DNA of 64,000 nucleotides, from contig JBJEUH010000077.1 of the NCBI GenBank assembly GCA_051883735.1, positions 2,043 through 66,042 on the forward strand. The letters run 5' to 3'. This DNA is from Candidatus Ventricola sp. (GTDB taxonomy: Bacteria > Bacillota > Clostridia > Christensenellales > Aristaeellaceae). The notes under the pieces are model-generated. The model saw only the letters and a list, made by a program, of their open reading frames with translations, was not told the DNA's origin and ran no database searches. Positions within the stretch are counted from its first letter, which is position 1. Each line of letters opens with the position of its first letter. The translations under genes were made by a program, and so were the position numbers. Positions 3,271 through 55,600 of this stretch are shown here, piece after piece.

Positions 3271-4089
3271 TTACGCGTCGTGCAGGCTCTCGTGCGCCGC
3301 TGCGACGACCGCGTCGATCTCCTCCTGCGTCACGCTGTGCGTCGCGCGGGATTTCGGCAGAATGTGCACGAGGAACTCGATGTTGCCCTCCGGCCCCTTG
3401 ATGGGCGAAAAGGACAGCGCCTGCGCCGCCCAGCCTAGGTCGTTTTCGATGAAGGCGAGCACCTCGGCAATCACGTCGCGGTGCACCTGCGCGTCGCGCA
3501 CGACGCCCTTCTTGCCCACGCGGTCGCGCCCCGCCTCAAACTGCGGCTTGATGAGCGAGATGAACGCGCCGTCCTCGCCCATGATGTCCGCCGCCGCCGG
3601 CAGTATCTTGGTGATGGAGATGAAGGACACGTCCATCACGCCCAGCGTCGGGTGCAGCGGCAGATCCTCGCGCTTCAGGTAGCGCGCGTTGGTGCGCTCC
3701 ATCACCGTCACGCGCGGATCGTTGCGCAGCTTCCAATCGAGCTGCCCATAGCCCACGTCGATGGCGTACACATGCGCCGCGCCGTTTTTGAGCAGCACGT
3801 CGGTAAAGCCGCCCGTGGATGCGCCCAGATCCATCGCCACCACGCCGGCGGGGTCCACGCCAAACACGCGGAGGCCCTTCTCCAGCTTCAGCGCGCCGCG
3901 GCTCACATAGCCCGTGCCCGTCTGGCGGACGATCAGCTCGTCCGCTTCCGTCACGGCCACGGAGGCCTTGGTCACCTTGTTCTCTCCGATATAGACCACG
4001 CCGGACATCACCAGCGCCTGCGCCTTCTCGCGGCTCGCGGCCAGGCCGCGCTCCACCAGCGCCACATCCACTCTCTTCTTGTCAGCCAT
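3271..4089 (-). CDS. tlyA: TlyA-family 16S/23S rRNA (cytidine-2'-O)-methyltransferase
   Basis: S4-like N-terminus (KKRVDVALVERGLAASREKAQALV) and FtsJ-type SAM fold (DLGASTGGFTDVLL). The ATG overlaps the dxs stop (ATGGCTGA), so the start was moved to M14 of the ORF. Confidence 0.85.
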   Translation of the reverse strand: MADKKRVDVALVERGLAASREKAQALVMSGVVYIGENKVTKASVAVTEADELIVRQTGTGYVSRGALKLEKGLRVFGVDPAGVVAMDLGASTGGFTDVLLKNGAAHVYAIDVGYGQLDWKLRNDPRVTVMERTNARYLKREDLPLHPTLGVMDVSFISITKILPAAADIMGEDGAFISLIKPQFEAGRDRVGKKGVVRDAQVHRDVIAEVLAFIENDLGWAAQALSFSPIKGPEGNIEFLVHILPKSRATHSVTQEEIDAVVAAAHESLHDA

Positions 4090-5965
4090 CGTTCTTCTCC
4101 GCAAGCGCAAGCTTGATCCTCTGGGCAATCTGCTCCGGCTTCAGGCCGCATTCCTCCAGCAGCTGATCGACCGAGCCATGCGCAATAAAGCGGTTGGGCA
4201 GGCCGAGGATCGCTGCCGGCTCCTGCGCGCCGTGCTGAGCACACAGCCGCGCGATCTCAGCGCCGAAGCCGCCGATCAGCTCGCCCTCCTCGATCGTGAT
4301 GATCCTCGTTTTCCTTTCAAACAGCGTGTGCAGGCACTGCATGTCCATGGGCCGCAGGCTCCAGGCGTCGATCACGCCGATCTGCACGCCCTCCTGCTCC
4401 AGCAGCTGCGCCGCCTGCATCGCGTGCCTCGTCATTCGTCCATAGGCCAGAACCGTCGCGTCCGCGCCCTCGCGCAGCGTCTGCCAGCGCCCCACCTCGG
4501 GCGCCTTGCCGTCAAGCGGCTTGGCATACGGCTCGATGCCATCCTTGGGGTACACGATCACGCACGGGCCGTCGACATAAAGCGAGGCGCGCACCGCAGC
4601 GCGGATATCGTCCGTGTCCCGGGGTGCAAGCAGCGTCAGGTTCGGGATGCTCAGCAGCATCGGCACGCTCAGCACGCCGTGATGCGTCTTGCCGTCGTCG
4701 CCCACCAGCGCCGCATGGTCTGCCAGGATCGTCACCGGCAGGTTCTGCAGGCAGACGTCATGCACAATCTGATCGTATGCGCGCTGCAAAAACGTCGCAT
4801 ACACCGCGAAATACGGCCGCATGCCCGCGCGGGCGAGGCCGGCCGCCATGCTGACGGCATGCTGCTCCGCGATGCCCACGTCAAAGAAGCGATCCGGATA
4901 CTGCCCGGCGAACCCGGCAAGGCCCGTGCCGCCCGCCATCGCGGCGGTGATGGCCACCACGCGCTCATCCTGCGCCGCCATCGCGGTCAGCGCCTTGCCG
5001 GCGGCCTGCGCCGCGCTCTCCCCGGAGGACTGGTTGCGTTTGAGACCGTTCTCCACGCAGAACGGCGCCACGCCGTGGAATTTCTCCGGTTGGCGCTCGG
5101 CCAGATCGTAGCCGTGTCCCTTTTGGGTGATCACATGGATGAGCAGCGGCGTGTCGTCGACCTGCTTGGCCTCCTCGAACACGCGCGTCATCTCGTCGAT
5201 ATTGTGCCCGTCGAACGGGCCCAGATACCGGAAGCCCAGCGCCTCGAACAGCTCGCCCTCCGTCACGACGGACTTGACCATGTCCTTGGCCTTCTCCATC
5301 AGGCTGGCAATCGAAGGACCGATCAGCGGGATGCGCTGCAGGTGATGCTTGATGCGCTTCTTGCCGCCGTACCAGGACGCGCTGGCGCGCAGATGCTTGA
5401 AATACTCCGAGAGCGCGCCGACGTTTTTGGAGATGGACATCTCGTTGTCGTTGAGGATGACGATCAGGCGGTTCTTGCCGTTGCCCGCGTCGTTCATCGC
5501 CTCATAGCACATGCCGCCGGTCAGCGCGCCGTCGCCGACGACCGCCACGACGTGATAGTCCTCGTGCCTGAGATCCCTTGCGCGGGCCAGCCCCAGCGCC
5601 ATGGAGATCGCCGTGGAGGAATGGCCGGTGTCAAACAGATCGTGCTCGCTCTCCGCGCGGCAGGGGAAGCCGCTCATGCCCTTGTAGGAGCGCAGGGTGG
5701 AGAACATCTCCTGCCTGCCGGTGAGCAGCTTGTGCGTGTAAATCTGATGGCCCACGTCAAAGATGATCTTGTCCGTAGGGCTGGAGAATGCGCGGTGCAG
5801 CGCAATGGTCAGCTCCACGTCGCCCAGGTTGGAGGCCAGGTGGCCGCCCTGGCGGGAAACCGTATCGATGATCGTCTGCCTGATCTCCGTAGCGAGCGCC
5901 TCGCACTCGGACACGGACAGCCTTTTGACGTCCTCAGGCCCATGAATTCCGGGCAGAATCGCCAT
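4082..5965 (-). CDS. dxs: 1-deoxy-D-xylulose-5-phosphate synthase
   Basis: About 627 aa. Thiamine-diphosphate motif region (GDGALTGGMCYEAMNDAG ... NDNEMSI) and transketolase-like middle and C-terminal domains. The start is either ATG at 5965 or GTG at 5971, downstream of a GGAGG. Confidence 0.95.
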   Translation of the reverse strand: MAILPGIHGPEDVKRLSVSECEALATEIRQTIIDTVSRQGGHLASNLGDVELTIALHRAFSSPTDKIIFDVGHQIYTHKLLTGRQEMFSTLRSYKGMSGFPCRAESEHDLFDTGHSSTAISMALGLARARDLRHEDYHVVAVVGDGALTGGMCYEAMNDAGNGKNRLIVILNDNEMSISKNVGALSEYFKHLRASASWYGGKKRIKHHLQRIPLIGPSIASLMEKAKDMVKSVVTEGELFEALGFRYLGPFDGHNIDEMTRVFEEAKQVDDTPLLIHVITQKGHGYDLAERQPEKFHGVAPFCVENGLKRNQSSGESAAQAAGKALTAMAAQDERVVAITAAMAGGTGLAGFAGQYPDRFFDVGIAEQHAVSMAAGLARAGMRPYFAVYATFLQRAYDQIVHDVCLQNLPVTILADHAALVGDDGKTHHGVLSVPMLLSIPNLTLLAPRDTDDIRAAVRASLYVDGPCVIVYPKDGIEPYAKPLDGKAPEVGRWQTLREGADATVLAYGRMTRHAMQAAQLLEQEGVQIGVIDAWSLRPMDMQCLHTLFERKTRIITIEEGELIGGFGAEIARLCAQHGAQEPAAILGLPNRFIAHGSVDQLLEECGLKPEQIAQRIKLALAEKNDG

Positions 5966-5967
5966 AT

Positions 5968-6549
5968 TCACAGCGCCTCCTTACGCGTTTTCTTCTTTTG
6001 CTTCGTCTTGTTCTTCTTTTCAAAGACAGCCATGACCCTGCCGACCGTCAGCACAATTTTGTCGCTTTTGGCGATGGCGACACCCTTTCCGTAGGCCTTG
6101 CCGCCGATCATGAACGCGGACGTGAACGCCGTAATCAGCATGGACGCAATCGCGCTTTTCATGCCCAGCGAGACCAGGTACACCGCGATGACCGAGCCGG
6201 CGGAGCCGGAAATGATGCCCACGATGTCGCCCACCACGTCGTTGAGGATGCTCGAGACGCGCTCCGCCTTGCGGATGAGCTGCAGCGCCTGCTTCGCGCC
6301 GAGGATCCGCTTGGAGGCCATGGCGATAAACGGCTGCTCGTCCGCCGAGGTCACCGCCGTGCCGATCACATCGGAGATGATGCCGATCATCACCAGCACA
6401 ATCAGCGAGAGCAGCGCGACCAGCAGCCCCGCAGATTCCACAAACAGGCTCGTCACAAAGGACATCACCACAGAAAGACCAAAGGACAGACAGACGACCG
6501 TCAGGACCCACTTCTGCTTGCTTTGCCTGGTCTTTTCTTTTTTACTCAC
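5968..6549 (-). CDS. oapA: Small 4-TM membrane protein, OLE-associated protein A candidate
   Basis: 193 aa. Lys-rich N- and C-termini and four hydrophobic helices (WVLTVVCLSFGLSVV.., LLVALLSLIVLVMIGI.., GDIVGIISGSAGSVIAVYLV, IASMLITAFTSAFMIGG). It lies immediately downstream of the large non-coding gap and overlaps the dxs start region, the position described for oapA. Confidence 0.65.
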   Translation of the reverse strand: MSKKEKTRQSKQKWVLTVVCLSFGLSVVMSFVTSLFVESAGLLVALLSLIVLVMIGIISDVIGTAVTSADEQPFIAMASKRILGAKQALQLIRKAERVSSILNDVVGDIVGIISGSAGSVIAVYLVSLGMKSAIASMLITAFTSAFMIGGKAYGKGVAIAKSDKIVLTVGRVMAVFEKKNKTKQKKKTRKEAL

Positions 6550-6588
6550 TCAACCTTCACTCCGAAACAGATTTCATTTCGACATTCC

Positions 6589-6614
6589 AAAAAAGCCCAC
6601 GGACATGCGTGGGC
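6589..6614 (-). terminator. Intrinsic terminator at the 3' end of the large ncRNA
   Basis: Minus-strand GCCCACG-CATGTC-CGTGGGC followed by TTTTTT. Confidence 0.55.
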
Positions 6615-7190
6615 GTTTCAATCGATAAATAGGTGGTGATACGACAAATAAACCTTGCGGCATAGGTTCGGTAGGATTTCCCCGCCCGTTACTCCCTGTC
6701 GCCATAGGAGCGGTTTCCCTTGAAAACGGACGTTGCGCCGTTTCCGCGCGCACGACCGAATTACCACTGAGTCCACACTGTAATCTCTGTCATATCCTCA
6801 TCGACAGTCTAGGAGCTTTCCTCGGCAGCGTCGGCTGCCTCCTAGCCTCTTTTGCAGCCGTGGTTTCACACAGCGATCGCGGCGGTTTCCGTGAGCCTTT
6901 GGTCACCGCGCGTTGTTCCATGATCCGCCACAACCACTCAAGGCAGGCTACACTGCAGGCAGCTTGTGTACCACCATGCAGGTTTTCATGATGCCGGTGC
7001 ATCATGCCTCCACGAAAAATGGGTCGAACTCCATCATGCCATTGACGGCCGCCCATAATTCTTACTTCCAGCACCGACCCCCGACTGGGCGTCAGCAGCC
7101 GGTACCAGAAACTTCATCGATATGCCCTTTAACGGATTTTTAGCCCCGTCTTCAGAGGCAACTCTGCTGACTAGAATACTGCACCACCTG
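6595..7190 (-). ncRNA. OLE (ornate large extremophilic) RNA candidate, about 600 nt
   Basis: Only long ORF-free stretch in the window, with lower G+C than its flanks and many local helices. It is delimited by an extended -10 promoter and a terminator. It sits between ispA (+PAP2) and oapA-dxs in the nusB-folD-xseAB-ispA...dxs-tlyA-nadK-argR-recN operon, the published OLE context. No covariance-model search was run. Confidence 0.7.
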
Positions 7191-7196
7191 CATGGT

Positions 7197-7225
7197 ATTA
7201 TACCACACCTGTCAAGTCCGCGCAA
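7197..7225 (-). promoter_or_regulatory. Sigma-A-type promoter for the OLE candidate
   Basis: Minus strand reads TTGCGC-17 nt-(TGg)TATAAT. The -10 is perfect and extended; the -35 is weak. Confidence 0.45.
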
Positions 7226-7256
7226 GCGCTTGTCCCGCCGGTCAATTGGGGCGGCA

Positions 7257-7703
7257 TCATGCCATCAGCGTGCCAATCAGCGTGCCCAGCAGCGCGCCGG
7301 CCAGCACCTGAATCGGCGTATGGCCCACCAGCTCCTTGAGGCGCTTCTCGTCAAACGTATAGCCGTTGCCCGAGAGCATGTCCATCAGCTGATTGATCAC
7401 CGCCGCGTTTTTGCCGGCCGAACGGCGCACGCCCGCCGCGTCGTACATCACGACGCCAGAAAAGCAGAACGCGAGCGCGAAGATCGAGGACGAGAAGCCC
7501 TCATGGAATCCGATCGTCATGAGCATCGCGCAGGTCATGGCCGAATGCGAGCTGGGCATGCCGCCGGAGCCGAGCACGCGCGATTTGTCAAACCGCCTGC
7601 TGATCGCCAGCGTCAGCAGCACCTTCAGCACCTGCGCCGCGGCCCAGCCCACCGCCGCCGCCTGGATCACCCGGTTGCCCAGAATTTCAAGGATTACATC
7701 CAC
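7257..7703 (-). CDS. Divergent PAP2 / acid-phosphatase-related membrane protein (YuiD-like)
   Basis: 148 aa, multi-TM, with the GMPSSHSA and YDAAGVRR motifs typical of the divergent PAP2 family. GTG start with a GGGAGGAA SD. Confidence 0.75.
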   Translation of the reverse strand: MDVILEILGNRVIQAAAVGWAAAQVLKVLLTLAISRRFDKSRVLGSGGMPSSHSAMTCAMLMTIGFHEGFSSSIFALAFCFSGVVMYDAAGVRRSAGKNAAVINQLMDMLSGNGYTFDEKRLKELVGHTPIQVLAGALLGTLIGTLMA

Positions 7704-7754: not shown

Positions 7755-8669
7755 TCAGCTCTTGCGCGTGCGCATCTGGGCGGCGAAGCCGTGCATGAAC
7801 GCCGCACGCTCGCCAAAGACGCCGATCGCTTCCTCCGCCTCGTCCCACAGCCGTGCGGAGCGCTCCTTCGCCGCCGCCACGCCCACCAGAGCCGGCCAGG
7901 TCATCTTGCCCCGCTGCGCGTCCATGCCGGTCTGCTTGCCCAGCAGTGCCGCGTCGCCCTCCACGTCCAGCAGATCGTCGTCGATCTGGAACGCGACGCC
8001 CACGCAGGAGCCGAAGCGGCGCAGCGCATCGATCTGCTCCTCGCTCGCGCCCGCGATGTACGCGGCCGCCAGCAGCGGTGCGGTCAGCAGGTCCGCCGTC
8101 TTGTGCATGTGGATGTAGAGCAGGCGCTCCGCGTCCGGCTCCATGTGCTCGCTGAGCAGATCCAGGCTCTGGCCCGCGATCATGCCGCACACGCCCGCGC
8201 GGTTTGCAATCGCCTTTGCCGCGAGCATGTGTCCCCGCAGGTTTTCCGGGTACATAGCCGCGTTGGCGAGCAGGCACTCGTACGCGTAGTTGAGCAGGCC
8301 GTCGCCTGCCAGGATCGCGTGGCCCACGCCGTAGACCTTGTGGTTCGTCAGGCGGCCGCGGCGATAGTCGTCGTTGTCCATGCCCGGCAGGTCGTCGTGG
8401 ATCAGCGAATAGGTGTGAATCATCTCCAGCGCCGCCGCCGGCGTCTTTGCCTGCTCGATGTCGCCGCCCAGCATCTCGCACGCGGCCAGCAGCAGCACCG
8501 GGCGGATGCGCTTGCCGCCCGCCAGCAGGCTGTATCGCATGGATTCGCACAGGTGCTTGGGAATCACGCCCGCCTGCGTCGGGCAAACCGCGTCCGTCAT
8601 GGGCAGGAGCCTTTCAAGCGTCTCCTCCACCATGCCGGCATAGCGGCTGTACTGCTCATGATACGCCAT
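7755..8669 (-). CDS. ispA: Farnesyl diphosphate synthase (polyprenyl synthetase)
   Basis: First and second Asp-rich motifs (LIHDDLPGMDNDDYRRG; FQIDDDLLD). Start placed at the ATG (MAYHEQ) 7 nt after GAGGAG, inside the xseB 3' end. Confidence 0.9.
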   Translation of the reverse strand: MAYHEQYSRYAGMVEETLERLLPMTDAVCPTQAGVIPKHLCESMRYSLLAGGKRIRPVLLLAACEMLGGDIEQAKTPAAALEMIHTYSLIHDDLPGMDNDDYRRGRLTNHKVYGVGHAILAGDGLLNYAYECLLANAAMYPENLRGHMLAAKAIANRAGVCGMIAGQSLDLLSEHMEPDAERLLYIHMHKTADLLTAPLLAAAYIAGASEEQIDALRRFGSCVGVAFQIDDDLLDVEGDAALLGKQTGMDAQRGKMTWPALVGVAAAKERSARLWDEAEEAIGVFGERAAFMHGFAAQMRTRKS

Positions 8670-8901
8670 GTTCATTCTCCTCAAACGTTTCAATTTCTGC
8701 CGTGTCCGGGTCGATCGTCTCGATGCGCTTCCTCTGCTGCGCAAGCAGCCCCTCGAGCTGCGCGTGCAGCTTCACACCCTGCTCGTAGAGCGCAATGGCC
8801 TCCTCGAGCGCCAGCTCGCTCCCGCTGAGCTTCTCCACCAGGGCGGTCAACTCCTGCATGCCCTCCTCAAAGGAGAGCGGCTTTTTCTTCTTAACGGCCA
8901 C
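8656..8901 (-). CDS. xseB: Exodeoxyribonuclease VII small subunit
   Basis: 81 aa. Helical XseB signature (SFEEGMQELTALVEKLSGSELALEEAIALYEQGVKL). GTG start after GGAGGG. Confidence 0.9.
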   Translation of the reverse strand: MAVKKKKPLSFEEGMQELTALVEKLSGSELALEEAIALYEQGVKLHAQLEGLLAQQRKRIETIDPDTAEIETFEENEHGVS

Positions 8902-10956: not shown

Positions 10957-11922
10957 TTATTCCTCCTTGTCGTTTTTGAACATCTCCGCGCCCAGCAGCG
11001 CCACGCCGACCGCGTTGTCGCCAGAGAGCTCCGGCCTGGCAAAGCAGAGGCGGCAGTTCAGCCTGCGCTTTTTCGCGCGCACAGTCAGCATCTCGCGCAG
11101 CAGCAGCGACGAAGCCACGCCGCCCGCCAGCAGCGCCTGACGGCATCCCGTCCGCTCGCACGCCGCCTCAATCTGCCGCTCGATCGTCCTTGACAGGAAG
11201 TCAAAGACCTCGGCGGCGATCTGCGCACGGCTCATTTCGCCCTCGTCCAGCCAGCGCGCGACCTTGTTTTCCGCGCCAGCCATGCAGCAATCGACGCCCC
11301 TGACCGATACGCCGATCAGGCCCTGCGTCTTCCCCTGCCGCGCGCCCTCCATCGCCAGCTTCTCCAGAGACGGCCCCGCCGGGAACGGCAGATCCATCCT
11401 CACGCCCGTGCGGTCCACCAGCTGGCCCGCATGCAGGTCGAGGCTGCCGCCCAACAGCGAGAGATTGCCCGCCTCGCACAGCAGGATCTCCGTCGTGCCG
11501 CCGGACAGGTGCAGCGCCAGAAACGGCTGCGCCGGATCGATTCCCGAATCCACCATCGCCGCGCGCACGTGTCCCTCTTGATGGCTGACAGGATAAAAAG
11601 GCACGCGCAGCAATGCTGCCGCTGCGCGCGCCTGGCTCTCTCCTGCCCGGAACACGGGCATATACGACTCCTGTGCCGGTCTGGGCCGCGTGCTCGCGCT
11701 CACAGCGACGATTTCCGCCTGCGGCGCCTTGCGCATCACGTCCGAAATCATGTCCGGCAGGTTCTTCACATGCTGAAACAGCCCCTGGGACTGCATCAGC
11801 CCGCGCTCGCCCGCTTCAACCGTCAGAAGGCGGCGGGAGGAGGCGACAATCCTGCCCGACACGGCCGCCAGCGCAGCGGAGGTCGTGTAGCAGCTGGTGT
11901 CCATGCCCAGCACGACTTTCAT
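10957..11922 (-). CDS. Kae1/TsaD-family (peptidase M22) protein
   Basis: 321 aa. ASKHA-fold N-terminus (LGMDTSCYTTSAAL) and an H-x3-H metal motif (SHQEGHVRA). ATGA overlap with the nusB stop. Confidence 0.7.
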   Translation of the reverse strand: MKVVLGMDTSCYTTSAALAAVSGRIVASSRRLLTVEAGERGLMQSQGLFQHVKNLPDMISDVMRKAPQAEIVAVSASTRPRPAQESYMPVFRAGESQARAAAALLRVPFYPVSHQEGHVRAAMVDSGIDPAQPFLALHLSGGTTEILLCEAGNLSLLGGSLDLHAGQLVDRTGVRMDLPFPAGPSLEKLAMEGARQGKTQGLIGVSVRGVDCCMAGAENKVARWLDEGEMSRAQIAAEVFDFLSRTIERQIEAACERTGCRQALLAGGVASSLLLREMLTVRAKKRRLNCRLCFARPELSGDNAVGVALLGAEMFKNDKEE

Positions 11923-38962: not shown

Positions 38963-39054
38963 CCGGCATGCTGCCGGCGGCATCACGGACAAAGCTCCGT
39001 CAATCATGAAGCTCTGTGCCCGGCAACGGCACTGTACGGAAAGATTTACATAAC
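38963..39054 (-). repeat. Intergenic repeat element, copy B
   Basis: Its reverse complement aligns with 3166-3255: identical 24-mer GTGATGCCGCCGGCAGCATGCCGG, a 13/15 match at the other end, and a diverged middle. On the minus strand the hairpin is followed by TTTTGT. Confidence 0.5.
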
Positions 39055-39093
39055 AAACGGACACACCGCTGAGATGCCCTCAGGACGGTGTGT
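39050..39093 (-). terminator. Terminator hairpin downstream of rnpB
   Basis: Minus-strand ACACACCG-(17 nt)-CGGTGTGT followed by CCGTTTGTTATG. Confidence 0.5.
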
Positions 39094-39115
39094 CCGGCTG
39101 CTGTCAAAAATGTCT

Positions 39116-39452
39116 GTGAGCGTTGCCTGTAAGCCGAGTTCTGTAATCGGCGGTCATCTATCTAGACCCGCTGTTGCCAGCGGGTTCAAGCGAAATCCTG
39201 AGAGCTCGACGGGCCGTCTCAAACGCTCTTTCGTTTCTTGCTGCGAGTGGGGTTTACATCGCGGACGAGTCGCCAGGCCGCGGGTGAGCTCTTACCTCAC
39301 CTTTCCACCCTTACACGCCTTGCGGCATGCGGTATCTCTCTGTTGCACTTTCCCTGGGGTCGCCCCCGCCGGGCGTTACCCGGCACCCTGCCCTATGCAG
39401 CTCGGACTTTCCTCACACCTTCCGGCGCGCGGCCGCCCGGCAGCCTCACAAA
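39116..39452 (-). ncRNA. rnpB: RNase P RNA (bacterial type A-like)
   Basis: The minus strand contains the universally conserved GAGGAAAGTCCGAGC near the 5' end, GGGTAACGCC, and ACAGAACTCGGCTTACAGG near the 3' end. The 5' GTGAGGC and 3' ...GCTCAC can form P1. A consensus promoter lies immediately upstream. Confidence 0.85.
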
Positions 39453-39459
39453 CGTTCAG

Positions 39460-39488
39460 ATTATATCACATTCTACCGCGCTTGTCAA
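39460..39488 (-). promoter_or_regulatory. Consensus sigma-A promoter of rnpB
   Basis: Minus strand reads TTGACA-17 nt-TATAAT exactly. The -35 overlaps the stop codon of the upstream CDS. Confidence 0.75.
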
Positions 39489-50711: not shown

Positions 50712-51425
50712 TCAGCCCTCCTCGTCGCACCAGAGAATCAGCGTGATATTGTCGCGCCCGCCGGCGAGAAGCGCCTGCTCAAGCAGGCTGTCCGCCGCCG
50801 TGTCGAGATTCTCCTCCTGTTTGAGCGTGCGCGCGATGTCCTCATCGGCAACCATACCGGTCAGCCCGTCCGAGCACAGCAGCCACAAATCGCCCTTCCT
50901 CCTGTCCGCCGCCAGCAGATCGGGCGCGTTGTCGCCCTGGGTGCCCAGCGCGCGGGTAATGATGTTGCGCCGCGGATGCCTGCGCGCCTCCTCCCGGGTG
51001 ATGATGCGCGCGCGCACCAGCTCCTCCACCAGGGAGTGATCCTGCGTGATCTGCTCCAGCTCGCCGCCGCGCAGGCGGTAGATGCGGCTGTCGCCGACGT
51101 GCGCGATGTACATGTAATGCCCGCCGCGCCACATTGCTGAGAGCGTCGTGCCCATGCCCGCGCAGGCCGGATTCTCCTTCGCGTGCGCCAGAATCGCCTC
51201 ATGCGCGTCCCTGACCGCGTCGCGCATCACGGAAATGCTGGCGATATCGTGCGAGGCCGCCATGCGCTTCACCGCGTCGATCGCCATGCTGCTGGCCACC
51301 TCGCCCGCGAGATGACCGCCCATGCCGTCCGCCACGGCGAAGATGCCCCGGCTTTCATCAAACCAGGCGGCGTCCTCGTTCTGCCTGCGCGCCTTGCCGA
51401 CGTCTGTTCTCAGCGTTGCCGTCAC
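50712..51425 (-). CDS. stp: PP2C-family Ser/Thr phosphatase
   Basis: 237 aa. RRQNEDA, ADGMGGHLAGEVAS, LLCSDGLT, GGRDNITL. Confidence 0.9.
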   Translation of the reverse strand: MTATLRTDVGKARRQNEDAAWFDESRGIFAVADGMGGHLAGEVASSMAIDAVKRMAASHDIASISVMRDAVRDAHEAILAHAKENPACAGMGTTLSAMWRGGHYMYIAHVGDSRIYRLRGGELEQITQDHSLVEELVRARIITREEARRHPRRNIITRALGTQGDNAPDLLAADRRKGDLWLLCSDGLTGMVADEDIARTLKQEENLDTAADSLLEQALLAGGRDNITLILWCDEEG

Positions 51426-51482
51426 GTTCGTGCCCCTTTCCTTTGCCCTGCCGCGCGCTCCGCCCTCTCCGGGGAAAAGCGT

Positions 51483-52550
51483 TTACGCTTTGGCGTTGTC
51501 CCTGATGTATCTGCGGCGCAGCTGGCCGCATGCGCCCTCGATGTCGTCGCCCATCTCGCGCCGTCTGGTGACGGAGATGTTCTTCTGCTCCAGCACCTTC
51601 TTGAACGCGTCCACCTCGCACTCGGAAACGCCCTGAAGCCCGCGCTCGGGCACGGCGTTGAGCGGGATGAGGTTCACATGGCACTGCATGCCGCGAAGGC
51701 GCGAGGCCAGCTCGGCCGCATGCTCCGGCGAGGCGTTCACGCCGTGCACCAGCGCGTATTCAAAGATCACGCGGCGGCCCGTCTTTTCGATGTAGTACCG
51801 GCACGCGGAGAGAATCTCGTCCATGGAATACCGGTTGGCGATGGGCATGGTCTGGCGTCGGATCTCGTCGTTGGGCGCGTGCAGCGACAGCGACAGCGTC
51901 ACCGGCAGATCCTCCTCCGCGAAGCGGCGCATGTTCTCCACCAGGCCGCAGGTGGACAGCGACACGCTGCGCATGCCGATGCACAGCCCGCCCTCCATGC
52001 GCAGAAGCCGCAGGAACTTGACCACGTTGTCGTAGTTGTCAAACGGTTCGCCGCTGCCCATGAGCACGATGTTGCCCACCTTCTGCCCCTCGCCCTGGAG
52101 GGCCAGCACGCCGTTGGCGCAGACGATCTGGCCGAGCATCTCCGCCGGGGTCAGGCTGCGGGCGCAGCCGTCCAGCGTGCTCGCACAGAACTTGCAGCCC
52201 ATGCGGCAGCCCACCTGCGTGGACAGGCACAGCGTGTTGCCGTACTTGTAGCGCATGAGCACGCCCTCGATGACGTGATCGTCCGGCAGGCGGTAGAGCA
52301 GCTTGATCGTGCCGTCGAGCTTCGACTGAATGGTCTCGATGACGGACACCGGGTTGTCGATGCAGGTTTCATGAAGCGTCTCGCGCAGCGCCTTGGGCAG
52401 GTTGCTCATGCGCTCAAACGGCACGCCCTGATGCAGCCACGCAAACACCTGCTTCGCCCGGAAGGCCGGCTGGCCCTGCGCCTTGAAAAAAGCGCCAAGC
52501 TCCTCGGGGGTGAGCCCGAGAAGCTGCGTCTTGTCGTTCTTGCTTTCCAT
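51483..52550 (-). CDS. rlmN: 23S rRNA/tRNA (adenine-C2)-methyltransferase, radical SAM
   Basis: 355 aa. CRMGCKFCAS radical-SAM cluster, GEPFDN, C-terminal catalytic Cys (GACGQL). Confidence 0.95.
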   Translation of the reverse strand: MESKNDKTQLLGLTPEELGAFFKAQGQPAFRAKQVFAWLHQGVPFERMSNLPKALRETLHETCIDNPVSVIETIQSKLDGTIKLLYRLPDDHVIEGVLMRYKYGNTLCLSTQVGCRMGCKFCASTLDGCARSLTPAEMLGQIVCANGVLALQGEGQKVGNIVLMGSGEPFDNYDNVVKFLRLLRMEGGLCIGMRSVSLSTCGLVENMRRFAEEDLPVTLSLSLHAPNDEIRRQTMPIANRYSMDEILSACRYYIEKTGRRVIFEYALVHGVNASPEHAAELASRLRGMQCHVNLIPLNAVPERGLQGVSECEVDAFKKVLEQKNISVTRRREMGDDIEGACGQLRRRYIRDNAKA

Positions 52551-52556
52551 CTTCTT

Positions 52557-54176
52557 TTACGCTCTCGCTCTGCGCAGGCGGCAGATGTAGAAGCCGTCCG
52601 TTCCGTCGCGGTGGGGCAGCATCTGCAGTCCGGTTTGGGTCTCGTGCTGCGCAAGCGCCTGCGGCAGCTCCGCGCCCATCGGGAAGACCTCGTACTCCGG
52701 ATGACGCGCGAGGAAGGCCTCGATCTGCTGCGCGTTCTCCTGCGGGAGAATGGAGCAGGTGGAATACACCAGCGTGCCGCCGACCTTGACCATCGGCGCG
52801 ACCGCATCGAGGATCTCGCTCTGCGTGCGGCAGAGGGAGGCGACGCCCTCGCGGCTCACGCGGTACTTGACGTCCGGCTTCTCGAGCATCACGCCCGTGC
52901 CGGAGCACGGCGCGTCGATGAGCGCCGCGTCGAGCGTCATCGCCATGTCCGGGCGCGGCGCGGAGGCGTCCTTCACCGCCGGGCGGACGTTCTCCAGCTT
53001 CAGGCGGTTCGCGGTGCCGCGGATCAGCTCCACGCGGTGCGCGTGGGTGTCCCAGGCGTAGACGCGGCCGGTGTCGTTCATCATCTCGCTGAGCACGGCG
53101 GTCTTTCCGCCCGGCGCAGCGCACGCGTCCAGCACCGTCTGGCCCGGCTTCGCGCCGACCACGCGGGCCGCGATCACGGAGCTCTCGCCCTGGATGGTGA
53201 ACAGGCCGTTCTGGAACGCGCGCATGCGGGTCATGTCGCCCGCGTTCCTCACCTTGTAGGTGCCCGGCACGATGCCCGGGGAAAACTCCAGCTCGTCGTC
53301 CGCAAACAGCGCGCGCAGGCGCGCGTCGTCGCAGCGCAGGTAGTTCACGCGCACGGTGATGTCGCGGTCCTTCGGACGGTAGCGCAGAATTTCCAGCGCG
53401 CCGTGCTCGCCGTAGGCCTCGATGAGCAGCTGCGCCAGATCCATCGGCGCGGAGAACAAAATCGACAGATACTTCGCCGGGTCGTCCTGCGGCTTGGGCC
53501 ACACGACGCCGTCCTTGCCGCGGATCATGTTGCGCAGCACGGCGTTCACCAGGCCCGTAAAGCCCTCAAAGCCCATCGCGCGGGTCAGGCTGACGCTCTC
53601 GTCCACCGCCGCCATGTCCGGCACGCGGTCGAGGTAGAACAGCTGGTACGCGCCCATGCGCAGAATCTCGCGCACGGCGGGCTCGATCTCCTTTTCGCCC
53701 TCCAGGAACTGGTCGATGCGCCAGTCGAGCGCGATCCGGTTTTCCAGCGTGCCGTAAACCAGCTGTGTGGTGAACGCGCGGTCGCGGCGGCCAAAGGCGG
53801 CCTGCGCCAAGCGCTTGTCCAGCGCCAGGGACGCATACGCGTCGCTGCGGCTCACGTCCAGCAGCGTTTCCAGCGCCACGCGGCGCGGCGCGAGGTTCAT
53901 CGGCTTCGGCTTTGCCGGACGCTCCGGACGCTCCGGACGCTCCGGACGCTCCGGACGATCCGGACGGTTCGGTCGGTCCGCGCGCATCTTGTACCCGCGC
54001 TGCCCGTCAGGGGCCGGCCTGCCGCCGCGCGGGGAAAAGCCCTTCTTCTCGCCAAACGACGGCTTCTCGCCGCGCGGCGCAAAGTCCTTCTTCCCGCCAA
54101 AGCCCGGCTTCCGGTCCGTCTTCTCAAGCTTCCTGCCGCCGCGGAACCCGCCGTCGCGGCCTCTGTTGTCTGCCAT
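52557..54176 (-). CDS. rsmB: 16S rRNA (cytosine967-C5)-methyltransferase with Arg/Gly/Lys/Pro-rich N-terminal extension
   Basis: 539 aa. NusB-like domain then the NOL1/NOP2/Sun fold (DACAAPGGKT ... DAPCSGTG ... YSTCS). The first about 105 aa are low-complexity. Confidence 0.9.
   Translation of the reverse strand: MADNRGRDGGFRGGRKLEKTDRKPGFGGKKDFAPRGEKPSFGEKKGFSPRGGRPAPDGQRGYKMRADRPNRPDRPERPERPERPERPAKPKPMNLAPRRVALETLLDVSRSDAYASLALDKRLAQAAFGRRDRAFTTQLVYGTLENRIALDWRIDQFLEGEKEIEPAVREILRMGAYQLFYLDRVPDMAAVDESVSLTRAMGFEGFTGLVNAVLRNMIRGKDGVVWPKPQDDPAKYLSILFSAPMDLAQLLIEAYGEHGALEILRYRPKDRDITVRVNYLRCDDARLRALFADDELEFSPGIVPGTYKVRNAGDMTRMRAFQNGLFTIQGESSVIAARVVGAKPGQTVLDACAAPGGKTAVLSEMMNDTGRVYAWDTHAHRVELIRGTANRLKLENVRPAVKDASAPRPDMAMTLDAALIDAPCSGTGVMLEKPDVKYRVSREGVASLCRTQSEILDAVAPMVKVGGTLVYSTCSILPQENAQQIEAFLARHPEYEVFPMGAELPQALAQHETQTGLQMLPHRDGTDGFYICRLRRARA
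53915..53968 (-). repeat. 9-bp coding tandem repeat (4 perfect + 2 degenerate units)
   Basis: Plus-strand CCGGACGCT x4, then CCGGACGAT and CCGGACGGT. Encodes RPNRPDRPERPERPERPERP in rsmB. Confidence 0.85.
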
Positions 54177-54179
54177 GCT

Positions 54180-55118
54180 TTACGCCTTTCCCAGGCAAAC
54201 GCCTGTCTCCATGGTGTGCCCGCGCAGGTAGTCCTTCGCGTTCATGCGCTTCGCGCCGGGCATCTGAATCTGCGCGAGGATCACATCGTGATCGCCGCAG
54301 GAGACGACCAGTCCCTGCCTGGCGTCCGCCGCGATGATCTCGCCGGGCGCGCCGCTTGCCGCGCCGTCCAGCGCGGTAAGCTCAAAGACCTTGATCGTCT
54401 GATCGCCGAGCGTCGTGAACGCGCCCGGCCACGGGGTCGTGCCGCGCACCAGAGCGTCAAGCTCCTGCGCTGGCCGGCTCCAGTCGATGCGCCCCAGCTC
54501 CTTGTCCATCTTTGGCTCGTAGGTCGCCGCGCTGTGATCCTGCGGAATGCGGCGGAGCGTGCCCGCCGTGAGCGCCTTGAGCGTCTCGATGAGCAGCTCA
54601 GCCCCCATCACCGCCAGGCGGTCGCTCAGCTCGCCCGCGTTTTCCGTGGGGCCGATCGGCGTCTCACGCATGAGCAGGATGTCGCCGGTGTCCATGCCCT
54701 TGTCGGTGAACATGGTCGTCACGCCGGTCACCTGATCGCCCTTGATCACGCTCCAGTTGATCGGCGCGCTGCCGCGATGCCTGGGCAGCAGCGAGGAATG
54801 CACGTTGATCGTGCCCAGCGGCGGGATATCCAGAATCTCCTGGGAGAGCAGCTGGCCAAACGCCGCCGTGACGCACAGATCCGGCGCGCAGGACTTGAGC
54901 ATGGCCACGCCCTCCTCGCGCTTGATGCGCTCCGGCTGGAAGACCGGGATGCCCGCGCTTTGGGCCAGCTCCTTCACCGGACAGGCGGCAAGCTTATGGC
55001 CGCGGCCCTTCGGGCGGTCCGGCTGGCAGAAGACGCCGACGACCTCATAGCCCTCATCAAGCAGCGCCCTGAGCGACGGCACGGCGAAATCCGGCGTGCC
55101 CATGAATACGATTCTCAC
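54180..55118 (-). CDS. fmt: Methionyl-tRNA formyltransferase
   Basis: 312 aa. MRIVFMGTPDFAV, INVHSSLLPRHRGSAPI. Confidence 0.95.
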   Translation of the reverse strand: MRIVFMGTPDFAVPSLRALLDEGYEVVGVFCQPDRPKGRGHKLAACPVKELAQSAGIPVFQPERIKREEGVAMLKSCAPDLCVTAAFGQLLSQEILDIPPLGTINVHSSLLPRHRGSAPINWSVIKGDQVTGVTTMFTDKGMDTGDILLMRETPIGPTENAGELSDRLAVMGAELLIETLKALTAGTLRRIPQDHSAATYEPKMDKELGRIDWSRPAQELDALVRGTTPWPGAFTTLGDQTIKVFELTALDGAASGAPGEIIAADARQGLVVSCGDHDVILAQIQMPGAKRMNAKDYLRGHTMETGVCLGKA

Positions 55119-55600
55119 GCTTCCCCGCCCTCTTCTTCCTCTTCTTCGTTGTCAAAGATTTCGCGGTACATCTTGTCCACATACAGCACGCCGTCCAGAT
55201 GATCGGTCTCGTGCATGATGCAGCGCGCCAGCAGGTCCTCGGCCTCGATCTCGTACCACTCGCCGTTGCGGTCCTGGAAGCGCGCGCGCACGACCATCGG
55301 GCGCTTGACCATGCCGCGGCGGCCGGGCACGGAGAGGCAGCCCTCCGGGCCGTCCTGCTCGCCCTCGACGGAGACGATCTCCGGGTTCACCATCTCGATC
55401 AGGCCGTCGCCGCAGTCCATCACGACCACGCGGCGCAGCACCGCCACCTGCGGGGCGGCCAGGCCCACGCCGTTGGCATGGTACATGGTCTCGGCCATGT
55501 CATTAAGCAGCCTGTGCAGCCGCTCGTCAAACTTCTCCACCGGGCGGCTCTTCTTGCGCAGCAGCTCGTCCTCGATATACACCATTTTGCGAAGCGCCAT
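55115..55600 (-). CDS. def: Peptide deformylase
   Basis: 161 aa. GVGLAAPQV, EGCLSVPG, HETDHLDG. Unusual acidic tail DNEEEEEEGGEA. Confidence 0.95.
   Translation of the reverse strand: MALRKMVYIEDELLRKKSRPVEKFDERLHRLLNDMAETMYHANGVGLAAPQVAVLRRVVVMDCGDGLIEMVNPEIVSVEGEQDGPEGCLSVPGRRGMVKRPMVVRARFQDRNGEWYEIEAEDLLARCIMHETDHLDGVLYVDKMYREIFDNEEEEEEGGEA

Follow-up and report, generated by a model that had tools for sequence, protein, structure and literature searches.

Positions 6550-7256 of a 64-kb stretch of contig JBJEUH010000077.1 (the whole of this stretch is called the window below), from a metagenome-assembled genome (MAG) of Candidatus Ventricola sp., form a gap of 707 nt, bounded on the minus strand by the start of a 193-aa open reading frame (ORF) and the stop of a 148-aa ORF. 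We conclude that this gap is almost certainly the gene of an OLE (ornate, large, extremophilic) RNA, a ~600-nt membrane-bound bacterial non-coding RNA, and that the next gene encodes OapA, its obligate membrane partner. Judged from its sequence, the locus is a discrete non-coding unit of ~600 nt, running from a promoter to a terminator, with the full OLE architecture and followed by the OapA gene. An initial annotation had proposed this identity on the minus strand, together with the bracketing promoter and terminator, a four-helix OapA, and a gap of lower G+C without credible ORF; each of these proposals agreed with the results given below. Two outcomes that it had named as refuting, a lack of a significant match to the OLE model and a lack of structural covariation among the homologous gaps, were not observed, and nothing contradicted the identification as OLE. 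The two genes are the following.

6617..7203, minus strand: OLE RNA gene (RF01071 match, covariation and minimum free energy).
5968..6549, minus strand: oapA, a 193-aa membrane protein with about four transmembrane helices, a DxxxD motif (D104-D108) and lysine- and arginine-rich (K/R-rich) termini and loop.

The whole 64-kb window was scanned against Rfam 15, and two matches reached the gathering threshold, OLE and RNase P class A. The OLE match (RF01071) covered 7203..6617 on the minus strand (587 nt), with a score of 465.6 bits (cut-off 50) and an E value of 1.8e-133. It spanned model positions 1-616 of 616 and was not truncated. The OLE sequence alone had a minimum free energy of -236 kcal/mol (z -4.72 vs shuffles), and its predicted fold recovered most of the family helices.

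A homologue scan with the 193-aa protein, using one genome per GTDB species, yielded 29 loci, all in MAGs from gut or faeces that belong to Clostridia, Christensenellales or 'Candidatus Ventricola'. An Rfam OLE match was found directly upstream of the protein gene in 29 of 29 loci; 25 of these matches were full length (456-513 bits) and 4 were cut by the end of the contig. The nucleotide identity of the window OLE with 24 close relatives was 86-99%. Covariation was assessed in an alignment of 27 OLE sequences, of which 25 came from one clade and two from outgroup loci (L028 and L029). The Rfam consensus structure was transferred to it via the window sequence, which is itself part of the alignment. 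With this structure (146 pairs), 89.5% of the cells were standard pairs, and double changes were observed in 62 pairs, as compared with 19.3 +/- 2.7 in column shuffles (none of 500 reached 62) and 12-22 in slid controls, in which the 3' partners were moved by 1-3 columns. The domain-closing helices P1, P2, P3 and P3.1 are absent from the Rfam structure line and were chosen by eye from the same alignment; they were 97.2% paired and contained 13 pairs with double changes, vs 5.0 +/- 1.1 in shuffles. P1 was 99.5% paired, with 3 such pairs, while in P3.1 all 7 pairs showed double changes. The pattern indicates that compensatory changes have preserved helices P1-P15 among the related genomes.

The positions of the main structural elements, as assigned by comparison with the family, are listed here.

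7182..7189, minus strand: 5' strand of P1, OLE nt 15-22 AGGUGGUG, pairing with 6631-6638 (nt 566-573).
7155..7175, minus strand: 5' strands of P2, P3 and P3.1 (nt 29-33, 35-38 and 43-49), with partner strands at 6808-6812 (nt 392-396), 6826-6829 (nt 375-378) and 6835-6841 (nt 363-369), respectively.
7137..7144, minus strand: A-rich loop L4, GCUAAAAA, invariant in 27/27 sequences.
7112..7121, minus strand: J4a/5 strand of the k-turn, AUCGAUGAAG, including C85, invariant in 27/27 sequences.
6987..7006, minus strand: P7, an 8-bp hairpin with a variable tetraloop, 29 model positions being replaced by 4 nt.
6894..6897, minus strand: core of loop L9, GGCU, at the self-complementary kissing-loop position (GGCC in the Rfam consensus).
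6741..6744, minus strand: GAAA (GNRA) tetraloop of P13, with a 1-nt bulge, C456 (window 6748).
6699..6702, minus strand: GCGA tetraloop of P14.1, within GGCGAC, invariant in 27/27 sequences.

All the motifs used in this family for partner binding or dimerization were present by sequence, namely L4, L5.1/L6.1, L9, J4a/5 with C85, the P13 loop with its bulge, and P14.1, and the majority of them did not vary within the alignment. The A-rich L4 loop makes an A-A helix dimer contact, and the L5.1 and L6.1 loops, which read GACGCCCAGUC and CAAUGGCAUG in the window OLE, make intermolecular contacts (PMC12286853, PMC12265935). The J4a/5 strand and the UAAG opposite to it, also present in the window, form the k-turn that is bound by OapC (PMC9723947). 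Binding of OapB needs the GNRA loop of P13 and a one-nucleotide bulge, and the P14.1 loop is a secondary OapB site (PMC7936274). The literature contains a proposal that the P3/P3.1 helix passes through the membrane.

The 193-aa protein, which is labelled 'hypothetical protein' at NCBI, carries, by its sequence, the hallmarks published for OapA, i.e. four transmembrane helices, a DxxxD motif, a distant relation to the CNNM family with neither a CBS nor a CorC domain, and a gene that immediately follows ole (PMC11332333, PMC12265935). Its hydrophobic spans (~13-38, 25-69 and 105-139) can be read as transmembrane helices at ~15-37, 41-66, 104-128 and 131-150, and K/R residues account for 6 of the 14 residues at the N-terminus, 6 in the loop 68-100 and 9 of the 22 at the C-terminus. 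The DxxxD motif, D104-VVG-D108 inside NDVVGDIVG, was invariant even in the 40%-identical proteins of L028 and L029. The sole Pfam signal was a sub-threshold match to CNNM (PF01595; E 0.0044, 17.1 bits for a cut-off of 28.4), and the protein ends after the transmembrane region; the same sub-threshold match was found in 11 of 11 orthologues (E 0.004 to 3.1e-6), with no other domain. The top six PDB fold matches of the OapA model were CorB/CorC proteins, with 7M1U first, the same top entry as reported for the OapA of Halalkalibacterium (Bacillus) halodurans (PMC11332333). The transmembrane part of the protein thus shares weak sequence and fold matches with the Mg2+ transporters MpfA/CorB/CorC/CNNM (PF01595; 7M1U, 7CFF). 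Unlike these, it lacks CBS and CorC/HlyC domains, has four rather than three transmembrane helices, and contains DxxxD. Membership of the CNNM family proper was therefore rejected, as the score was below the cut-off and the CBS/CorC_HlyC domains were missing. NCBIfam had no model for OapA, nor for DUF212, the family of the 148-aa protein. When metagenome contigs were scanned for AAGGGCAYATCGATGAAG, the invariant motif of the k-turn, at least 120 loci were obtained, of which 92 had 700 nt or more of upstream sequence. Among the matches listed, oapA lay directly downstream of ole in 74 of the 81 metagenomic OLE loci with enough downstream sequence.

Transcription signals were predicted on both sides of the RNA, as follows.

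7197..7225, minus strand: predicted promoter, with a -35 box TTGCGC (7225-7220), a 17-nt spacer and an extended -10 box TGgTATAAT (7205-7197).
6589..6614, minus strand: predicted intrinsic terminator, GCCCACG-CAUGUC-CGUGGGC, with a 6-nt loop and six U.
7210..7215, minus strand: a perfect TTGACA, followed after 7 nt by the -10 box of ole.

The promoter would be of the sigma-A type, with a predicted start at ~7190, at the foot of P1. It was not called by a strict consensus sigma-70 scan, its -35 box matching the consensus at 3 of 6 positions, and we accepted it because of its extended -10 box and its conservation in relatives: all 24 close relatives for which upstream sequence was available had TGnTATAAT, and almost all had TTG at -35. 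The proximal ole promoter documented in H. halodurans also starts transcription at the foot of P1 (PMC3413148). The nearby TTGACA was rejected as the -35 box of the same TATAAT, since the spacer would be of 7 nt, and there was no -10 box 17 nt downstream of it. This hexamer was kept as CTTGACAG in most close relatives, with the exception of L015, L020 and L024-L027, and could be a relic or the target of a regulator.

The terminator was found by a scan (-13.9 kcal/mol, z -2.8), ~25 nt past the 3' strand of P1 and ~40 nt before oapA, so that the primary transcript likely extends from ~7190 to ~6589, i.e. over ~600 nt. Its stem was identical in 24 of 24 close relatives, whereas the stem GCCCACG..CGTGGGC was found in none of the 96 other metagenomic OLE loci among the matches listed; any hairpin followed by a T-run was observed in the ole-oapA zone of 16 of these 96. 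Thus, the ole-oapA terminator is a feature of the clade and not of the family, and the stem was discarded as a general OLE feature. In some relatives, 100-270 extra nt were observed between ole and oapA (L002, 5837-6000; L005, 5686-6000; L010, L021 and L024). They lay between the 3' end of OLE and the conserved terminator in L002 and L005, and after the terminator in L010, L021 and L024.

The invariance of this stem in 24 relatives, its proximity to oapA and the lack of a visible separate promoter for oapA-dxs (none was seen in the ~40 nt before oapA) would fit with the idea that the RNA is mainly a cis-acting structured leader or attenuator of the oapA-dxs-tlyA operon, rather than the RNA of a trans-acting ribonucleoprotein (RNP). 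We consider this very improbable. The family acts in trans, as indicated by the finding in H. halodurans that ole-oap achieves rescue when placed at a distal site of the chromosome (PMC3413148), and most OLE loci are devoid of such a terminator, which therefore does not represent a family mechanism. Furthermore, ~25% of the nucleotides are conserved, and the protein-binding motifs far exceed the needs of an attenuator. With an OLE RNA that acts in trans, the terminator may tune read-through as a side effect.

Comparison with known systems indicated how far the window OLE departs from the family. With H. halodurans C-125 (PMC3413148, PMC12265935), it shares an RNA matching the full family model, a proximal promoter before P1, oapA directly downstream, the k-turn, the GNRA loop of P13 with its bulge, the P14.1 loop, and a cluster comprising nusB, folD, xseA, xseB, ispA, ole, oapA, dxs, tlyA, nadK, argR and recN. 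Unlike in H. halodurans, ispA and ole are separated in the window by a DUF212 gene, and ole and oapA by a terminator, and P7 has 8 bp; furthermore, the host is a gut anaerobe with 65% G+C, whereas H. halodurans is an alkaliphile. With the dimers of C. acetobutylicum and C. botulinum OLE resolved by cryo-EM (PMC12286853, PMC12265935), it shares the architecture of the P3-P9 domain, a self-complementary L9, and loops L4, L5.1 and L6.1 with the consensus sequence. Unlike these two RNAs, it has a GGCU core (with two G.U pairs) rather than GGCC in L9; also, L7, which contacts L5/L6 in one Clostridium structure, is a short variable tetraloop in the window. Two published variants, variant 1 (TANB77) and variant 2 (RF39), share with the window their uncultured gut Bacillota hosts and some shortening of the P7 region (PMC11332333). 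In variant 2, P7 and P8 are missing, while variant 1 has P7, P8 and P9 in shortened form and is often without the OapB site of P13 (PMC11332333). In contrast, P8 (13 bp) and P9 (~100 nt) are full length in the window OLE, its P13 OapB site is intact and P7 alone is short, which indicates that it belongs to the full-length class and is neither variant 1 nor variant 2.

P7, which is 25 nt shorter than in the Rfam consensus, was the single clear departure of the window OLE from this consensus; it was short in all close relatives and long in L028 and L029. As to L9, its core read GGCC in both outgroup loci; the window and 16 relatives had GGCU, and 7 relatives had AGCU. The outer pair is thus G-C, then G.U, then A-U, so that self-complementarity is kept. 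This series is consistent with selection for the symmetric RNA-RNA kissing contact seen by cryo-EM.

Both the truncation of P7 and the weakening of the L9 palindrome to GGCU could also be seen as marks of an OLE remnant that is decaying and has no function, and that persists only through its linkage to essential isoprenoid genes, and rare defective ole genes have indeed been described (PMC11332333). This is even less probable than a role in cis. The published defective genes are without oapA, which is present in the window, and the J6/7-P8 region, in which P7 stands, is a known variable zone (PMC12265935). A remnant would also not account for a match that covers the full OLE model, for the 86-99% identity with 24 close relatives accompanied by compensatory changes rather than random decay, or for the conservation of an intact promoter, terminator and oapA.

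Base composition and substitution pattern indicated that the conserved gap is non-coding. The G+C content was 0.50-0.57 inside the gap, as compared with 0.60-0.70 in its flanks. The ORFs of the gap (52-94 aa, on both strands) had a G+C content at third codon positions (GC3) of 0.50-0.60, vs 0.83-0.85 in the flanking genes and 0.79-0.92 in the genes of the window. Among 25 closely related sequences, the variable columns were evenly distributed over the three codon phases in the gap (56/60/58), whereas oapA showed the expected excess at third positions (71/43/162). Because its GC3 is low and its substitutions lack a 3-base periodicity, the gap is conserved but not coding. The possibility that it encodes one or more small proteins, from the ORFs of 63-94 aa, was therefore ruled out for all practical purposes, the more so as the strong match to the RNA model explains the conservation.

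The mechanism that we propose for the window locus relies on functional inferences made for the family (PMC3413148, PMC7936274, PMC9723947, PMC12054373, PMC12286853, PMC12265935). By analogy with H. halodurans and with the Clostridium cryo-EM structures, the OLE RNA would accumulate to a high level and dimerize. OapA would retain it in or at the cytoplasmic membrane, whose bilayer P3/P3.1 might span, and the association with the small RNA-binding proteins OapB, OapC and bS21 would lead to an RNP that helps the cell to tolerate cold, alcohol, poor carbon sources and an excess of Mg2+. As proposed for its homologues, this RNP would most likely modulate the presumed transport of divalent cations by OapA, and sequester or organize partner proteins. 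In the Ventricola clade, the combination of a strong promoter with a leaky terminator would result in much more OLE RNA than OapA. Most transcripts would end as free OLE RNA, while read-through of the terminator would supply oapA and the essential dxs, as suggested by the lack of a visible promoter before oapA and by the overlap between oapA and dxs described below.

Several observations weigh against this picture. The presence of a terminator before oapA-dxs means that the expression of these two genes has to be inferred. The host is a mesophilic gut anaerobe and may not show the stress phenotypes known from an alkaliphile. The self-pairing of L9 is weak in the window, where it consists of 2 G-C pairs and 2 G.U pairs. 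For OapA, the AF2 model, made from a shallow alignment, was all helical and poor (pLDDT 64.6, pTM 0.43), and the fold matches obtained with it were weak (E 0.05-0.9, TM-score 0.39-0.46). A profile search of PDB sequences with the OapA orthologues gave no match, even at an E value of 10. Finally, no KOW-motif (OapB) or L7Ae-family (OapC) protein was found among the small ORFs scanned in the 64-kb window; in the published census, OapB is present in ~60% and OapC in ~45% of OLE hosts (PMC11332333).

The OLE hits of the same census number 2,822; they are spread over Bacillota, with uncultured clades from the gut among their hosts (PMC11332333). The window OLE is thus an ordinary, previously unannotated addition to a well-known family already counted in thousands of genomes, and the view that an OLE RNA in a GC-rich Clostridia genome is unusual, expressed in the initial annotation, was not upheld. 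The details specific to the clade (a short P7, a terminator between ole and oapA, DUF212 upstream and a GGCU core in L9) are modest. What the locus shows is that an abundant lineage of gut Clostridia with high G+C has an OLE/OapA pair with all its features; being well defined, it adds comparative data, although little that is new. With its conserved extended -10 promoter and its terminator, it could make questions on the 3' end and on stoichiometry easy to test. A further small, testable lead is the recurrence of DUF212 beside ole, which bears on the long-noted and unexplained link between OLE and isoprenoid genes.

The genes that surround the pair are listed below.

7257..7703, minus strand: gene of a DUF212 / 'divergent PAP2 family' membrane protein, 148 aa (PF02681, E 3.4e-47).
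7755..8744, minus strand: ispA (farnesyl diphosphate synthase), 319.5 bits with NF045485 FPPsyn (cut-off 275).
4082..5971, minus strand: dxs, 709 bits with TIGR00204, GTG start.

DUF212 was found between ispA and ole in 24 of 24 close relatives and was absent in L028 and L029, where ispA directly precedes ole. A homologue search with the window DUF212 listed relatives that all had at least 78% identity. In the metagenomic loci whose upstream sequence reached 700 nt or more, and among the matches listed, the gene directly upstream of ole was DUF212, on the same strand, in 16 of 92, ispA in 38 of 92, and something else or unknown in 38 of 92. Among these matches, the 16 DUF212-ole loci consisted of 6 that were near-identical and Ventricola-like and 10 in which DUF212 was 42-49% identical to that of the window. 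A set of 13 distant loci bearing DUF212 (L034, L037, L064, L069, L076, L094, L096, L107, L113, L125, L129, L135 and L147), of which 10 are within the 16 just mentioned, all had an Rfam OLE match (350-522 bits). Because DUF212 directly precedes ole in distant loci as well, the order ispA, DUF212, ole, oapA, dxs is a recurrent variant in a subset of OLE lineages. We found no literature linking DUF212 or yuiD to OLE, in a search that covered neither the census of ole neighbours published in 2023 nor the paper of 2006 on the discovery of OLE.

By its family relation, the DUF212 protein is a putative lipid- or polyprenyl-phosphate phosphatase. It could be a lineage-specific accessory of the OLE RNP, or link OLE to the turnover of isoprenoid-lipid phosphates, instead of being a passenger of the cluster, but we regard this as rather unlikely; it may merely be one more isoprenoid or lipid-phosphate gene of the cluster.

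On the other side of the pair, the stop codon of oapA overlaps the GTG start of dxs (GTGA; window 5968-5974, minus strand), which indicates that the two genes are co-transcribed. Translation of the membrane partner may also be coupled to that of the first enzyme of the methylerythritol phosphate (MEP) pathway. The coordinates given for ispA are those of the longest ORF; its probable start is the ATG at 8675, as relatives align from about residue 24.

Taken more widely, the order of genes on the minus strand is the spoIIIA operon, two Asp23 genes, DUF2273, nusB, a TsaD-like gene, folD, xseA, xseB, ispA, DUF212, OLE, oapA, dxs, tlyA, nadK, argR and recN. The order from nusB to recN was the same in 24 of 24 close relatives whose contigs reach that far. 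The array in the initial annotation was thus right in its larger gene order, yet it had ispA directly before the gap, where DUF212 (PF02681, E 3.4e-47) intervenes, and it omitted the TsaD-like gene between nusB and folD. The host, a spoIIIA-bearing member of a gut Clostridia lineage (the window has 65% G+C), is in line with the known range of OLE, which comprises Bacillota that are typically anaerobic or extremophilic; its relatives are MAGs from animal and human gut. OapA and DUF212 of the window were 100% identical to proteins of a Candidatus Ventricola sp. MAG at NCBI. Upstream of nusB, the segment 12373-18411 (minus strand) carries genes for a DUF2273 small membrane protein, two Asp23-family (YqhY-like) proteins, spoIIIAH, spoIIIAE, spoIIIAC and spoIIIAA. 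The presence of spoIIIA and Asp23 genes at this place is consistent with a spore-former and with the genes (yqhY, sporulation) that have been published as associated with ole.

The TsaD/Kae1-like gene (10957-11922, minus strand) scored 131.9 bits, for an NCBIfam equivalog cut-off of 296, and its product may be a divergent paralogue. It was kept at its position between nusB and folD in all close relatives, and weaker matches (35-44%) were present in some distant OLE loci (L029, L054, L066, L086 and L105).

The gap had also been thought to be the only long ORF-free stretch of the window. This was incorrect, as a second one, at 38970-39484 (515 nt), holds the RNase P class A RNA detected in the Rfam 15 scan (39448..39113, minus strand, 260 bits, E 1.3e-83). 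Lastly, a plus-strand ORF of 1339 aa at 51183-55202, with a G+C content of 0.88 at first codon positions (GC1), was dismissed as an antisense artefact of the high G+C. The real genes underneath are on the minus strand and comprise an rlmN-like gene (51483-52550), rsmB (52557-54176), fmt (54180-55118) and def (55115-55600).

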